In this document: positions 1 through 4,790 of the stretch, in pieces
Numbering within the stretch: the stretch's first letter is position 1
Layout: the number at the start of each line of letters is the position of its first letter
IMG/VR virus record: IMGVR_UViG_2531839439_000012
Span: 1 to 4,790 of that record
Length of the DNA: 4,790 nucleotides
Source: a virus
Lineage: Duplodnaviria > Heunggongvirae > Uroviricota > Caudoviricetes
Direction: 5' to 3' (one strand)
The notes under the pieces: generated by a model
Told to the model about the DNA's origin: nothing
Seen by the model: only the letters and a program-made list of their open reading frames with translations
Database searches by the model: none
Program-made: the position numbers and the translations under genes

Positions 1-1
1 A

Positions 2-1051
2 CTGGTCAATGACCCGCGGGCCGTCACGCTGCATATTTCACCGGATATCGATGAACGGGAATTTATTACCCGTTATCTCGGTAATATGAATATCAGGATA
101 AGCCGTAAAAAGGGCGTTGATTATATTTACAGTCATACACCTGCCGCACCAGAGGAGCCGCTGAAATCCCTTGTTTACACGCCCCGTTACCGGACAGTGG
201 AGTATCTGCATCAGGCGCTTTCCGGTCTGGGTCAGCTTCCGGCCGCACAACAGCCGGTTCAGGGGGCAAACGGTGAGCAGACATGGCAGGCGGTCAGCAG
301 TGGTACCCGGTTCATCAGTGCATCCGGGGATGTGTTTGTGTTCCGGGGAACGGCCCGGGAAGTTGAGCTTGTCCGGCAGCTTCTGCCGCAGATTGACGTC
401 AGGGCACAGGAGGTTTCGGTTGCCGGGTATGTGTTTGAGGTCCAGACCAGTGAGCGTAACGGTTCAGGTCTGGCGCTGGCCGCAGAGCTTTTATCCGGTC
501 GTTTCAGTATCACCATGAGCAGCGCATCGGGGCTGGATAACTTTATTCGCCTCAGCACGGGGTCTGTTGATGCAATGTATGAGTTATTCAGGACCGACAG
601 CCGTTTTCAGGTGGTCAGTTCGCCACGTCTGCGCGTTATCTCCGGTAAGGAGGCGGTTTTCAGCGTGGGGTCTGATGTGCCGGTTCTGTCATCAGTGTCA
701 TGGCAGGATAAGGTTCCGGTGCAGTCCGTGGAATACCGCAGCAGCGGGGCTATTTTTCGGGTAAAACCCACCGTGACGCAGGATGTGATAGGTCTGGATA
801 TCGTTCAGCAGCTGAGTAACTTTGCAAAAACGGATACGGGGGTGAATAACACGCCAACGCTGATAAAGCGCGAGGTGTCCACGTCGGTGAGTCTGAATGA
901 CGGTGATATCATTGTGCTGGGCGGACTGGCGGAGAACAAGACATCAAAGGCGCGGACAGGGCTTTCATTTCTGCCGGATGTGTTTGGTTCAGACTCTGAT
1001 GAACGTGCGAAAACCGATATCATCGTCGTTCTTCAGGCCCGGCGGGTCTGA
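2..1051 (+). CDS. Secretin-family outer-membrane channel protein (phage pIV / T2SS GspD / type IV pilus secretin-like), C-terminal ~350 aa; 5' end lies upstream of window
   Basis: Frame is open from position 2 with no in-frame stop. The ATG at 86 has no Shine-Dalgarno and its N-terminus (MNIRISRKKG...) is not a signal peptide, so the true start is probably upstream. The C-terminal ~170 aa carry secretin-domain hallmarks: FQVVSSPRLRVISGKEAVFSVGSDVPV, VEYRSSGAIFRVKPTV, NNTPTLIKREVSTSVSLNDGDIIVLGGLAENKTSKARTGLSFLPDVFG, DIIVVLQARRV. Stop TGA at 1049-1051. Family assignment is from recalled motifs, not a search. Confidence 0.85.
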   Translation: MVNDPRAVTLHISPDIDEREFITRYLGNMNIRISRKKGVDYIYSHTPAAPEEPLKSLVYTPRYRTVEYLHQALSGLGQLPAAQQPVQGANGEQTWQAVSSGTRFISASGDVFVFRGTAREVELVRQLLPQIDVRAQEVSVAGYVFEVQTSERNGSGLALAAELLSGRFSITMSSASGLDNFIRLSTGSVDAMYELFRTDSRFQVVSSPRLRVISGKEAVFSVGSDVPVLSSVSWQDKVPVQSVEYRSSGAIFRVKPTVTQDVIGLDIVQQLSNFAKTDTGVNNTPTLIKREVSTSVSLNDGDIIVLGGLAENKTSKARTGLSFLPDVFGSDSDERAKTDIIVVLQARRV

Positions 1052-1449
1052 GTGTGTGATGATGTCCGTCAGGACATGTAAGGCGGCATGATGAAGTTTC
1101 ATGTGACGCAGATGTCAGCCCGCCGAAACCGGGGAGAACGTGTATATGTCACGGGACAGCGCAACGCGCCGCCTGCCAGACCGCCTTTTAGCGGGCATTC
1201 ACCGAGACGAGCGGCGCAAGACGGGAGTCGGACAGTCATTGATGAAGCCGTTCGATGGAATTGATGACTGACAGGCCGTCTTTTTGAGCCGGAATTTTCA
1301 AACACAGACCCTGATGTGTTATCAGCGGTAATGTTTTACTCGTTACAATTTGCGCACTCTGTTATGTGGCAGTGGACTGGTACATACGGAGGCGGACATA
1401 ACGTTGGTGGAGACGACCATCCACAATTCATTACCTTAATTTTACCAGC

Positions 1450-1487
1450 GCGCCTTATAGTTACCTGATTTATAAGGCGCTTTTTTT
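1450..1487 (+). terminator. Rho-independent terminator (10-bp perfect stem GCGCCTTATA / TATAAGGCGC, 11-nt loop, T7 tract)
   Basis: Stem left 1450-1459, loop 1460-1470, stem right 1471-1480, then TTTTTTT 1481-1487. On the opposite strand the stem is not followed by a T-run, so it is oriented for + strand transcripts. Confidence 0.65.
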
Positions 1488-1525
1488 CTTTCTTGTGTTT
1501 CCTGCAGTCAACAGAACCAGCCTGA

Positions 1526-1547
1526 TCTTATGACAGTGCGCATAAGA
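1526..1547 (+). promoter_or_regulatory. Inverted repeat TCTTATG-N8-CATAAGA (possible operator or protein-binding site)
   Basis: TCTTATG at 1526-1532 and CATAAGA at 1541-1547 are exact reverse complements separated by 8 bp. The site lies between the terminator and the TMP gene. Confidence 0.25.
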
Positions 1548-1577
1548 TTCATTACGTTAAAAACGACATGGGTATAT

Positions 1578-1616
1578 ATCAGTACTGATTTTACTGGAAA
1601 AACTGGATTTTCAGTA
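1578..1616 (+). repeat. 12-bp perfect palindrome ATCAGTACTGAT overlapping phased TACTG/ACTGG repeats separated by A4/T4 tracts
   Basis: ATCAGTACTGAT at 1578-1589 is its own reverse complement. ACTGA 1584-1588, ACTGG 1593-1597 and ACTGG 1602-1606 are direct repeats at exactly 9-bp spacing, with an inverted copy CAGTA at 1612-1616. The intervening TTTT/AAAA tracts are phased near one helical turn. Confidence 0.4.
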
Positions 1617-1769
1617 TCAATCCCAAAGAAGTATGGCTAATGCAGCTTTATAAGCAATTGATTCTATTAAGCGATGTTTTTTGTGATTGGTTGAAGCAAA
1701 CCTGAACACGAAGTCACTGAAGCGGCAATAAACTGTTTCATGGCGGAATTATTAGAGTAAAGAACAATC

Positions 1770-1804
1770 GGAGGTATCCGCACAACGCGGATATACAGGA
1801 CATG
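1770..1804 (+). promoter_or_regulatory. Structured translation-initiation region of the TMP gene: SD GGAGG (1770-1774), then a 7-bp stem-loop (1775-1793), then 8 nt, then ATG 1802
   Basis: TATCCGC (1775-1781) and GCGGATA (1787-1793) are exact reverse complements around loop ACAAC. GGAGG is 27 nt from the ATG in linear sequence, but folding would leave an effective spacing of about 8 nt. No other in-frame start lies between the upstream stop (1718-1720) and 1802. Confidence 0.3.
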
Positions 1805-3703
1805 AGTAACACAAACGTAGGTAGAATTTATTATGAGGTTGATGCGCGCACAGGGAAGCTATTAACCGCAGGGAAACAAGCTGACGACGCATTCGATCGC
1901 ATTGAACGCGGCGCAAAGCGCGCTGATAACTCAATCAACAAACTGAATACGACAATCAGCAAACTGGCGGCGGCGGTTAACGTTGGCCTGCTAATGATGG
2001 CGGCTAAACGCTTTATTGAAATCGCGGACAACGTAAAACTACTACGCGCCCGTGTATCCCGGCTATCCGGTAGTCTGGTTGAAGCTAAGGCTAATTTTAG
2101 CGGCATTCTTGAGATCAGCAAGCGAACTGGCATGAAGATTGAGGATACTACGAAGTTATGGGAAAACCTTACTTCAGCTTTGTCTGATTCAAACGCTACC
2201 AGGGGCCAGATCTTACAGTTGACAGAGACACTACAGCAGATCGGGCGTATTGGTGGTAGTTCATCCGAAGAAGCCGCAAACGCCTTGCGACAGTTAGGGC
2301 AATCTATTAACGGCGGGATTGTCCGTGCTGAGGAATTTAACAGCATCCTGGAGGGTATGCCGGAGCTATGGCGGCGCGTAGCAAGTCAGATGGGGATCTC
2401 AATGGGTGAGCTACGTCGCCGCATGTTGGATGGCAAACTGACGGCTGAGGATGTAGTAAATGCAATCCTGAAAGGATCAGGCGAAATCGAAAAAGAATTT
2501 AACAAGCTGCCGACAACCACGGAACAGGCAATGACAGAGCTATCAACAAATTTTAGCCTGTTACTGGAAACCATCGACCAGACGCTGCATGTTACTGAAC
2601 TGGTCGGTCGCGGTATTAAAACGCTGGCTGATTATTGCCGCGAGCTATCCGGCTGGTTTAAAACGCTGAAATCTGATTCTGCGTCATTGGCTGATAAGTT
2701 ATGGACACTTGCCGCAGCCTTTGAGCCGTTTGTGCCGGGCCTTGATTTATTCCGCGCTCAAGCCAAACAAACCGACTTCTTAGGCGCAGCGCCAGACAAT
2801 CAATCTACGGGTTTTGTGTCAACGCTACCGACACAGCAGGCCACCACTGATATTAAGCTGAAAGACAATGGCGGTGGAGGTGGCAATAAACCGAAACGCG
2901 CGCAGAAAGATCCGGCAGAAGAATCGCTGAAACGGAAACGCGCAGAACTGGAACGACTTAACCAGGGCTTTGCTGAGGGTAGCAAAGAGGCTGAAATGTG
3001 GGACGCCGTTCAGGAAATGGGCGCTAACGCAACGGCAAAACAGGTTAGTGAGATGAAAAACCTTGCGCACCTGATTTACGAAACAAACGCCGCGCGTGAG
3101 CATCAAATCGAACTGGAAGAAAAAGCAAAACAGCTTAATGAGCAATTTAATCCCGTTGATGCGCTCAAACAACGCCATGCCCTTGAAATGCAACAGGCTG
3201 ATGAGCTATTCAACAAACAGATGATTAACGAGGAAACGCTAAACGCGCTTAAACAACAGCACGCAGAAGAATTGCTTGCCTCGCAGTGGGAACAATTCCG
3301 GGCGCAAGGTGGGATTAATGGCCTGATTGGTGACATGGCTGATGGCCTGAGTGGTGGCGCTACAAATGCCGTTGTCGGCCTGCTTAATGGTACGCAGAAC
3401 CTGGAAACCGCTTTCGCCAATATCGGGACTACCATTCTCGGAAAAGTGGTGGGAAGTATCGCTGAGATGGGCGCTGAATACGTCAAACAAATGATCTTAA
3501 GCGAGGCAGCCAGCGCCAGCGCAATGAGCGGACAAGCGGCAACAGGCGCATCAATCGCATCATCAATGGCCCCGGCAGCAGCGGCGACAGCTACCGCGAC
3601 AATGGGGACGGCCCCGATGGTCGCAATGTCAGCTATCAGCGCCTTGATGGCTGGCATTACTGGCTTGTTTTGGCGGTGGTCGCTACAACGGCGGCGCGGT
3701 TAA
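1802..3703 (+). CDS. Phage tail tape measure protein-like (N-terminal TMP domain, K/E/Q-rich coiled-coil, Gly/Ala-rich hydrophobic region); frame as given ends prematurely at 3703
   Basis: 633-aa ORF. Residues ~150-230 (LRQLGQSINGGIVRAEEFNSILEGMPELWRRVASQMGISMGELRRRMLDGKLTAEDVVNAIL) match the conserved tape-measure N-terminal domain as I recall it. A long charged helical segment (KRKRAELERL...QQHAEELLASQWEQFRAQ) is followed by a Gly/Ala/Ser-rich hydrophobic segment, as is typical of TMPs. The ATG at 1802 is the first start after an in-frame stop at 1718-1720. Confidence 0.85.
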   Translation: MSNTNVGRIYYEVDARTGKLLTAGKQADDAFDRIERGAKRADNSINKLNTTISKLAAAVNVGLLMMAAKRFIEIADNVKLLRARVSRLSGSLVEAKANFSGILEISKRTGMKIEDTTKLWENLTSALSDSNATRGQILQLTETLQQIGRIGGSSSEEAANALRQLGQSINGGIVRAEEFNSILEGMPELWRRVASQMGISMGELRRRMLDGKLTAEDVVNAILKGSGEIEKEFNKLPTTTEQAMTELSTNFSLLLETIDQTLHVTELVGRGIKTLADYCRELSGWFKTLKSDSASLADKLWTLAAAFEPFVPGLDLFRAQAKQTDFLGAAPDNQSTGFVSTLPTQQATTDIKLKDNGGGGGNKPKRAQKDPAEESLKRKRAELERLNQGFAEGSKEAEMWDAVQEMGANATAKQVSEMKNLAHLIYETNAAREHQIELEEKAKQLNEQFNPVDALKQRHALEMQQADELFNKQMINEETLNALKQQHAEELLASQWEQFRAQGGINGLIGDMADGLSGGATNAVVGLLNGTQNLETAFANIGTTILGKVVGSIAEMGAEYVKQMILSEAASASAMSGQAATGASIASSMAPAAAATATATMGTAPMVAMSAISALMAGITGLFWRWSLQRRRG

Positions 3704-3995
3704 CGGTGGCAATCTTTACAGGGTTGGTGAGCACGGTGTCCCTGAGTTATTTACCTCTACTGGCGGGAAACAGTACATGATCCCCGGCGAGGGTGGACGA
3801 GTTACACCGGGCCGCGATCTGGTTGGCAGTGGTGGCGGCATCACACTGAACGTAACAAACAACATCCAGGCGACAAACGGCTGGACTGAAGACGACTCAA
3901 AAGCGTTGCAACAGACTATAGAAAACACAGCAATGCGCCTGATGCAGCGCGAGTCGCAAAGACCTGGAGGCATGTTACAACCACGGCGGCGTTAA
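3672..3995 (+). CDS. C-terminal segment of the same tape-measure-like protein, in the +1 frame (frameshifted continuation); the 6-frame track shows its ATG-initiated part as 3777..3995
   Basis: The frame with codons at 3672, 3675, ... is open from 3648 to the TAA at 3993-3995. It encodes GGGRYNGGAVNGGNLYRVGEHGVPELFTSTGGKQYMIPGEGGRVTPG..., which resembles the conserved TMP C-terminus (compare phage lambda gpH ...GNLYRLMRGY... and the common ...YRVGE.GPEL... pattern). Both frames are open across 3648-3703, and the junction sits at the T4 run 3668-3671. Confidence 0.6.
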   Translation, partial: GGGRYNGGAVNGGNLYRVGEHGVPELFTSTGGKQYMIPGEGGRVTPGRDLVGSGGGITLNVTNNIQATNGWTEDDSKALQQTIENTAMRLMQRESQRPGGMLQPRRR

Positions 3996-4165
3996 CCAAA
4001 TCCCACGCCAGGGGGATAGACTGGCGGACCTTCAAAGACGGTCGCACACCGTGTTTAACATAATTTATTGTTTTTTGCTTGCTCTTATTATTGCAGCCGT
4101 TAGAGTTGGCGTGGCAGTTTTTCACCTGTTTCGCGTGTTGCTGTGTTTTTGGGGAAGAAAAACAA

Positions 4166-4261
4166 ATGAGAAGGCTTATATACCTGGTATTTATGCTATT
4201 TGCTATCGGGCAAGCCATAATTTTTATCACAATGCTGATCTGTCTGATGCTCTTTAGTTAA
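4166..4261 (+). CDS. Candidate small hydrophobic membrane peptide (31 aa: MRRLIYLVFMLFAIGQAIIFITMLICLMLFS)
   Basis: ATG at 4166 is preceded by GGGGAAG (4151-4157) at about 8-nt spacing. The peptide has a basic N-terminus (RR) followed by one predicted transmembrane helix. It is the internal-start version of the 60-aa ORF 4079..4261. I recognise no homolog, and short ORFs in AT-rich DNA are often spurious. Confidence 0.25.
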   Translation: MRRLIYLVFMLFAIGQAIIFITMLICLMLFS

Positions 4262-4790
4262 CTCCACCAGGATCCGCGCCGGGCTTTGCTATACAGACCA
4301 ATCACTCTTAATATAAGCTATTGATTCTTCTTAATTATAACCGCGCGTTAGAATTAACCTTCCCGCCATAAACGCTCCTACGCAAAAATCCCTCACAACT
4401 ACCCTGTCAATTTGCCAGATTTCACGTACACGCGCCCATATCCCCGCTACCGGATACACGCCCGCTTATACCGGACACCGGATAAACAAAGGCCCAGGTA
4501 GTTAGCAACCTACCCAGGCCCCGCGCATGGTTTTAATGCCATCATTATTAAGCATGCTAATACTAATCAAATCATAATTAGCACAACTTATAATCGAACA
4601 GAAAACACACAAACCAGATAATGATTTTTTCTGGTTATACTTATCTAAAAAAGTGGTATAGGATGTAACTTATTATTTTGTAAGGATAAATTTATTGCGT
4701 GGTAAGATGAACAGGCTTGTGCACCTCCCGAAAAACACGCGAAAATCAAAGTGTTCTTTCTTTTTTTGTTTTTATTTTTTCATTTTCTCT

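Follow-up and report, generated by a model that had tools for sequence, protein, structure and literature searches.

The closest described relatives of the element discussed here are the filamentous phages among the integrative mobile elements exploiting Xer (IMEX), namely CTXphi, VGJphi and TLCphi of Vibrio cholerae, and Ypfphi/CUS and UPphi of Enterobacteriaceae. They lack an integrase, carry the gene order Rep, coat, Zot and secretin, lie in tandem copies at the chromosomal dif site, and end, as prophages, in a XerC-arm half-site with the crossover beside that arm (PMC7307601, PMC12715192). These traits are shared by the phage whose right end is contained in the DNA analyzed here, which is the entire 4,790-bp contig AQCR01000005.1 of Escherichia coli MP021017.4 (GCA_000354495.2), hereafter called the window. 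The initial annotation had noticed in it a secretin gene followed, in the same orientation, by a gene of the tape-measure protein (TMP) type, and had left the choice between a chance junction of two mobile elements and an uncharacterized arrangement for secretin-mediated export. Our analysis favors, with a probability of roughly 0.85, the account in which the window is the attR of a filamentous prophage that had entered an ectopic dif-like site and had not used the chromosomal dif. The secretin would thus stand beside the tape-measure gene because a filamentous phage inserted at a dif-like site in an unrelated island of the eut operon, and the pair is, in all likelihood, an ordinary chance junction of two mobile elements with no new functional module. 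The left part of the window (1-1545) derives from an E. coli inovirus prophage of ~7.9 kb and forms its right end, with the 3' part of the secretin gene, a hairpin, and the XerC-arm att end, while the right part (1546-4790) is the right-hand portion of a CPZ-55-family island, with the rest of the dif-like site, a leader, the TMP gene, and the island end. The mechanism is of the known IMEX type; it is the location that is unusual.

The boundary between the two parts is a hybrid Xer site of 28 bp (1535..1562, plus strand), which matches dif in an 11-6-11 layout with 1 + 2 arm mismatches. On the plus strand, it consists of an XerC arm of the phage type (AGTGCGCATAA, 1535-1545), followed by a spacer (GATTCA, 1546-1551) and an XerD arm (TTACGTTAAAA, 1552-1562), both of the island type. 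For comparison, the E. coli dif reads GGTGCGCATAA-TGTATA-TTATGTTAAAT, and the unoccupied island site in TOK-001 reads AGTGCGCATTA-GATTCA-TTACGTTAAAA. Close variants of the empty island site were found in PI6, O157, Z142-6 and 12 metagenome contigs, all without the phage, and the empty sites at four loci (L001, L004, L005 and L009) had 2 + 2 or 1 + 2 arm mismatches to dif. The phage end, on the other side, is constant (...CTTATGAC-AGTGCGCATAA) and is thereafter followed by the phage's own spacer, whereas in the window the phage sequence continues through the XerC arm and then gives way to the island spacer and XerD arm. From 1535 to 4790, the window is 99.5% identical to TOK-001, where the matching sequence lies inside an ~8-kb island between eutB and eutA; the differences amount to four substitutions, one 12-bp deletion and one extra T. 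One of these only four substitutions in 3,256 bp falls at position 1544, which is A in the window, as in the phage, and T in TOK-001. Since the XerC arm is of the phage type and the spacer and XerD arm are of the island type, the evidence is suggestive of a crossover between 1544 and 1548, at 1545-1547, an interval that spans the predicted XerC cleavage position at the border of arm and spacer. The site was detected by scoring the two arms separately; a search for dif across the window with up to three mismatches returned none. When 223 kb of E. coli loci were scanned with at most five arm mismatches, only genuine dif/att sites and the island site were found. The segment 1535-1562 has the dif-like 11-6-11 layout of a Xer site and is used by Xer-specific elements. 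A ‘recurrent breakpoint’ at 1534/1535 had also been considered as the mark of a mobile TMP cassette and was discarded, as it is merely the end of the phage part of the window.

The junction itself is real and is situated at the eut locus. A look-up of the intact 730-aa TMP allele retrieved the identical junction in at least nine other assemblies, always followed by eutA-eutH (loci L025-L033), and one Logan contig with the junction was present in 19 samples. On a 720-kb contig, the order is IS1, a partial g6-like gene, zot, the full secretin gene, the non-coding phage tail, the site, the TMP gene, and eutA. It could nevertheless be asked whether the contig is an assembly chimera, in which a multi-copy phage repeat was linked to the island through a short stretch common to both. 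The contig is only 4,790 bp long, its left end lies within a near-exact repeat (1-1136) of a phage copy at the dif locus, and the junction was absent from all 5,426 complete E. coli genomes scanned; pattern scans of the junction in GTDB representative genomes and JGI metagenomes likewise gave no match, and a looser site pattern had no match in genome contigs and matched 12 metagenome contigs, every one phage-free. These observations would suit a chimera, but the junction was assembled independently in the other assemblies, including the 720-kb and Logan contigs, only ~9-14 bp are common to both partners at the join, and the join coincides exactly with the recombinase cleavage position. The 400 bp left of the join are unique in the genome, and because the sequence next to the junction is unique, we consider a repeat-induced chimera very improbable.

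The repeat has its own explanation in the phage copies at dif that the same lineage retains. These are deletion derivatives, or ‘mini-phages’ (L045:1369-7302; L047-L052:7699-11400), in which the order is hipBA, regulators, Rep, a 123-aa fusion open reading frame (ORF), a 321-aa secretin remnant, the tail, dif, and PapD, with neither coat nor zot genes. They are like the window over 1-1136, except for one difference at 1014, and diverge from 1137 onwards, so that the ~400 bases left of the junction (1137-1534) are unique to the eut copy within the lineage. Because 1-1136 is repeated in the dif-locus copies, assemblers break inside the secretin gene. One mini-phage copy was seen to adjoin IS21. 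The dif-locus copies also bear on the possibility that the junction arose by a chromosomal rearrangement, i.e., by Xer-mediated or homologous exchange between a dif-resident prophage and the island site. The two are inverted relative to each other, and an exchange between them would yield the junction; moreover, the island site bears the right flank of dif in L037, L038 and L040, which means that exchanges or element movements between the two loci do occur. However, both sides of the dif locus are preserved in the lineage of the window, as hipBA-phage and phage-dif-PapD, and since both flanks are kept, a swap between dif and eut is disfavored. In addition, the att-proximal tail of the eut copy (1137-1534) differs from that of the dif copies, zot is present in the eut copy and missing from the dif copies, and an inversion of 1 Mb would, by moving dif, interfere with the resolution of chromosome dimers, as is established for the dif activity zone. 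Overall, a rearrangement of this kind appears improbable.

In the favored account, that of a prophage at an ectopic dif-like site, the phage entered the dif-like site of the island, which is itself inserted between eutB and eutA by its own IntZ. The incoming DNA would be the circular inovirus genome, the target of its replicative form would be the island site AGTGCGCATTAGATTCATTACGTTAAAA, and the integration would be catalyzed by XerC independently of FtsK, in the manner of CTXphi and VGJphi; the left junction, attL, would then read island-left, site, phage-left. The homologous prophages contain no integrase and have dif flanks, GGTGCGCATAA... at attL and AGTGCGCATAA-spacer-TTATGTTAAAT at attR; with no integrase of its own and with hybrid dif-like bounds, the phage would classify as an IMEX. 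Several points weigh against this account or temper it. Some island variants (PI6 and L014) likewise have an A at position 1544, and the mapping of the crossover is therefore suggestive and no proof. The dependence of the integration on XerC and XerD is something that we infer. The attP appears to be complex, as tandem junctions contain two XerC-arm sites ~60 bp apart, with spacers that vary among copies. The left junction was recovered neither by the look-up of cluster members nor in the read-through assembly L025, and a homology search for it with the 197-aa protein of the island found no exact representative. All junction-bearing assemblies probably constitute one clonal lineage, in which case the junction represents a single event. 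Lastly, the eut prophage is interrupted by IS1 inside the g6-like gene (L025:1-6635), and the prophage in the lineage of the window, being cut by IS1, is thus probably defective.

Two observations were made in passing on the surroundings of these structures. Beyond IS1 in L025, the genes yfdY-lpxP-alaC-ypdAB were found in inverted order relative to eutA; the ypdB-yfdY genes are inverted relative to K-12, which suggests an IS1-mediated inversion of ~65 kb beside the eut prophage. Within the phage tail, there is an inverted XerC-arm-like sequence at 1343-1358 (reverse complement AGTGCGCAAATTGTAA), and a 14-nt copy of spacer and XerD arm at 1426-1439 (ATTCATTACCTTAA, against ATTCATTACGTTAA at 1547-1560), the latter a borderline chance match. 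These two tail elements may have arisen by chance, or may belong to an attP that is folded or compound.

The secretin was then assigned to its phage. Its gene is represented by the 3' part, codons 58-406 of 406 (2..1051, plus strand), being truncated by the left contig end such that 349 codons lie within the window; the ORF of 321 aa at 86-1051 (plus strand) is the form annotated when the N-terminus is missing. The assignment was based on Pfam (Secretin PF00263, E 1.4e-25), on PHROG_1012, ‘protein IV of M13’ (E 1.3e-114, profile positions 54-400 of 403), and on identity to the prophage protein of E24377A, in which residues 58-406 are the same as those of the window (349/349). The closest secretins in the phage database were all from inoviruses, first metagenomic inoviruses at 48% identity, and then fs2, VFJ and f1. 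Like the pIV of the Ff phages (f1/M13; PDB 7OFH), the protein is ~400 aa in size, is encoded by the final gene of the assembly operon right after pI/Zot, and matches PHROG_1012 over its full length; the sequence match to PDB 7OFH itself had an E of 5e-11, although the identity to f1 pIV is only ~24%. The initial annotation had compared the gene to pIV at the end of a filamentous-phage assembly operon and had suggested that a Zot/pI-like ATPase be sought upstream. As the window starts within the secretin gene, this could be seen only outside it, and zot was indeed found directly before the secretin gene in the sibling contig L025 and in homologous prophages (L002, L003 and L008). With a secretin domain, a full-length pIV-family match, and zot just upstream, the protein is an inovirus pIV, and its role is virion export together with the Zot/pI ATPase of the phage. 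It is to be noted that RefSeq, by contrast, calls secretins of this type ‘GspD’, even though they score below the GspD equivalog cutoff. A true type II GspD was considered and rejected: membership was judged by the TIGR02517 equivalog score, the N0-N3 domain set (~650 aa), and a gsp operon, none of which applies, as the score was 115.5 bits against a cutoff of 351 and covered the C-terminal domain only, the protein has 406 aa, and its neighbors are phage genes.

The phage part as a whole agrees with this assignment. Positions 1 to ~1545 are 95-97% identical to integrated filamentous prophages of E. coli, with matches over 1-1534/1553; at the nucleotide level, there was no match among 50,697 deposited phage genomes. 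In JNE25-005, the prophages lie in tandem copies with a period of 7,926 bp and are annotated with a replication initiator, small proteins, a g3p-like ‘phage coat protein’, a Zot-domain protein, and ‘GspD’, while E24377A and 16F5M1D1 contain one phage copy each, beside hipBA at the dif locus. The non-coding right-end tail of the phage (1052..1534, plus strand) matches the prophages of JNE25-005 and 16F5M1D1 as far as the XerC arm. It contains a terminator-like hairpin, followed by a T-run (1450..1480, plus strand), which lies at the end of the phage operon and has a predicted RNA fold of -15.8 kcal/mol (z -4.09), with none of 200 shuffled sequences as stable.

On the other side of the site, the TMP gene (1802..3995, plus strand) is a genuine tape-measure homolog. 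It matched Pfam TMP_3 (PF20155, E 1.8e-53), tape-measure families of PHROG (lowest E 2e-128), and TIGR02675 (70 bits, cutoff 21). The protein is 50% identical to the 735-aa TMP of siphophage mEp013 over the full length (734/735 aa), and the two are nearly equal in size. In the window, a +1 frameshift splits it into ORFs at 1802-3703 and 3777-3995, the latter of 72 codons (both plus strand), due to an extra T at 3668 in the T-run 3665-3668. This T was found in this assembly only; the gene is intact, with 730-734 aa, in TOK-001 and the siblings, and the sibling assemblies have 730 aa without the extra T. Being private to this assembly, the frameshift stems from a sequencing error or from a mutation of recent date. 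The shorter length of 730 aa, as against 734 aa in TOK-001, reflects a 12-bp in-frame deletion after 3534, in an Ala/Thr-rich segment, which is common to the siblings. The end of the gene at 3995, as the initial annotation had it, proved to be a true stop codon. In mEp013, the TMP gene is placed in the tail module, between head/tail genes and minor-tail genes; among the island neighbors of the TMP gene here, which encode helix-turn-helix (HTH), HNH, TerS-like and small proteins, no tail families were detected. The TMP is, thus described, a real tape-measure homolog stranded in a satellite-like island, and belongs with the tailed-phage-derived set of that island (HNH, TerS-like YffO, and TMP). 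A 17-nt direct repeat flanks the gene (1649-1665 and 4312-4328) and is a borderline chance match.

The island is inserted between eutB and eutA and carries its own integrase, IntZ. Related islands in PI6, O157:H7, Z142-6 and C7 contain intZ, HTH and HNH genes, small genes of no known function, a TerS-like gene, and the TMP gene. The TerS-like gene shares a 90% cluster with YffO of K-12, and since it clusters with YffO, the island is assigned to the CPZ-55 family. The features of this family were all found in TOK-001, PI6, O157, Z142-6 and C7, whereas in the lineage of the window only the eutA side was seen. Islands of this family are 8-12 kb long and encode IntZ, an AlpA-like HTH protein, an HNH nuclease, the TerS-like YffO, and an intact TMP of 730-734 aa (L001:11255-17472; L010:4547-17083), a layout that resembles that of a phage satellite. 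The literature search brought up no paper that connects CPZ-55 with satellites or with a tape-measure gene.

In view of these separate origins, it is of interest to consider whether the secretin and the TMP nonetheless form a functional unit, be it for export of a tail-like or TMP-derived product, or through a phage operon that drives the TMP gene. The two genes are on the same strand and 750 bp apart, and read-through from the phage operon into the TMP gene would be compatible with the sequence. As the initial annotation stated, the genes share one orientation, and both lie on the plus strand; they are not, however, adjacent cistrons, as the 750 bp between them are non-coding and contain the terminator-like hairpin, a strong one, and the 28-bp dif-like att site. 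The co-occurrence analysis that it had proposed was negative, with the two genes linked in 0/5,426 complete genomes, although ~150-200 genomes have each of them separately, in its normal context. Furthermore, the TMP gene keeps the same leader and dif-like site with or without the phage, and IS1 breaks the prophage in the lineage of the window. Nothing that was found links the secretin and the TMP functionally, and we regard such a unit, and with it an uncharacterized export arrangement, as scarcely credible. The proposal of a chance junction of two mobile elements, on the other hand, is borne out by the clear att boundary at 1535-1562. It had also been envisaged that the secretin might be part of a canonical type II secretion or pilus operon, with the TMP belonging to an unrelated element across an att boundary; of this, the att boundary and the unrelated TMP-bearing element were indeed found, but the secretin is phage-borne, and there is no type II secretion or pilus operon.

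The status of the island site as a Xer site receives support from other elements. L039 (10647-12633) contains an insertion sequence (IS) of ~2 kb, bounded by TGT...ACA and encoding an HTH-rich transposase of 452 aa. It is inserted at a distance of exactly 5 bp from the XerC arm, toward which its transposase-proximal (left) end points, and is accompanied by a duplication of 5 bp, TCCAT. In L037, L038, L040 and L041, an ISLad2-like IS of 5.3 kb, with passengers that include FRG-domain and other genes, occupies the same position with the same TCCAT duplication (L037/L038:10647-15971). The same large IS was found 5 bp from the canonical dif in strain AH04 (coordinates for this observation also include L043:14698-20022). 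The IS1202 family contains ‘dif site hunters’, for which a constant orientation, a spacing of 5 bp from the XerC arm and a duplication of 5 bp are described (PMC10132070; bioRxiv 10.1101/2022.12.17.520857), and the enterobacterial targets listed for them resemble the island site. The IS1202-family insertions 5 bp from the XerC arm thus offer independent support for a genuine Xer site. The plasmid pUTAK-3 (104 kb; L023:8234-10129) contains a truncated phage relative, with partial secretin and tail, that ends in AGTGCGCATAA CGTACA TTATGTTAAAT, and the spacer of this site is the same as that of the PI6/Z142-6 island site. This remnant at a dif-like site indicates that ectopic landing by this phage group is not unique.

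Some features of L037 and L038 are recorded here as separate observations. The chromosomal dif right flank (CATGTTGATTG...) adjoins the island site at 15972-15999 and in the sequence to its right; the XerD arm is a hybrid, TTACGTTAAAT, and the exchange point misfits a simple XerC or XerD cleavage position. The same flank also contains an element that encodes a pair of site-specific integrases and a protein of 787 aa. Elements found at the island site comprise an inovirus, IS1202-family IS, and this double-integrase element. As a new observation, this insertion hotspot, an ectopic Xer site at which dif-targeting elements accumulate, is of modest weight. That CPZ-55-family islands might carry a functional XerC/XerD site for their own biology, which would be a second landing pad for dif elements ~1 Mb from the terminus, is a speculative and rather unlikely extension of it; its role might be multimer resolution in a satellite-like episome (HNH, TerS-like, TMP), or it might be a point at which modules are exchanged. 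On the same speculative reading, if the island were mobilized by a tailed helper phage, the lodged filamentous phage could travel inside a tailed-phage capsid.

The remaining features of the window lie in the island part. An AT-rich leader (1563..1801, plus strand), in which no convincing ORF was found, separates the site from the TMP gene, so that the dif-like site is ~240 bp upstream of the start of the gene; the leader is conserved together with the site in TOK-001, PI6, O157 and the 12 metagenome contigs. The island of strain C7 is without the dif-like site and ~165 bp of the leader (L010:11771-11925, compared with L001:14949-15267). In the alignment, which is uncertain, the segment that is extra relative to C7 and the site share their first base, which would suit an arrival of the site with a small insertion. 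The island right end (3996..4790, no strand assigned) is collinear with its counterpart in TOK-001 to a point 214 bp short of eutA. It includes a 345-bp segment (4032-4376) that is present in the window, TOK-001 and PI6 and is precisely missing from the O157:H7 island; it contains small, overlapping and very hydrophobic ORFs (4051-4257, 4079-4261, and a 31-aa ORF at 4168-4261), for which no family match was found. A hairpin scan placed a terminator-like hairpin at 4489-4522 (minus strand). In the window, the Rfam search returned only a chance microRNA match, and the promoter scan revealed nothing that exceeded background.

These results remove a false lead, in that the secretin next to the TMP gene is here no indication of a novel system for secretion or of a novel tail system, and they caution that the RefSeq label ‘GspD’ is misleading on these prophage secretin genes. 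They document integration of an E. coli inovirus at a Xer site far from the terminus and within another mobile element, and are relevant to the prediction of prophage boundaries in draft genomes. They also bear on the choice of targets by IMEX phages and ‘dif site hunter’ IS outside the dif activity zone.

Among known systems, CPZ-55 of K-12 (intZ, yffL-yffS) shares with the island the eutB/eutA locus, the name of the integrase, and the TerS-like YffO cluster. The relatives described here differ from it in having an intact TMP gene of 730-734 aa and a dif-like site; CPZ-55 of K-12 presumably has no TMP gene. The pdif/xrs sites (Harmer, Pong & Hall 2023) are similar to the island site in that an XerC/XerD-type site outside the terminus has differing modules on its two sides. 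Acinetobacter plasmids, however, carry arrays of paired pdif sites, whereas the E. coli island has one chromosomal site in an integrase-borne island. Finally, unlike the IMEX phages resident at dif, the copy in the window occupies a dif-like site within another mobile element, at a distance of ~1 Mb from the terminus.

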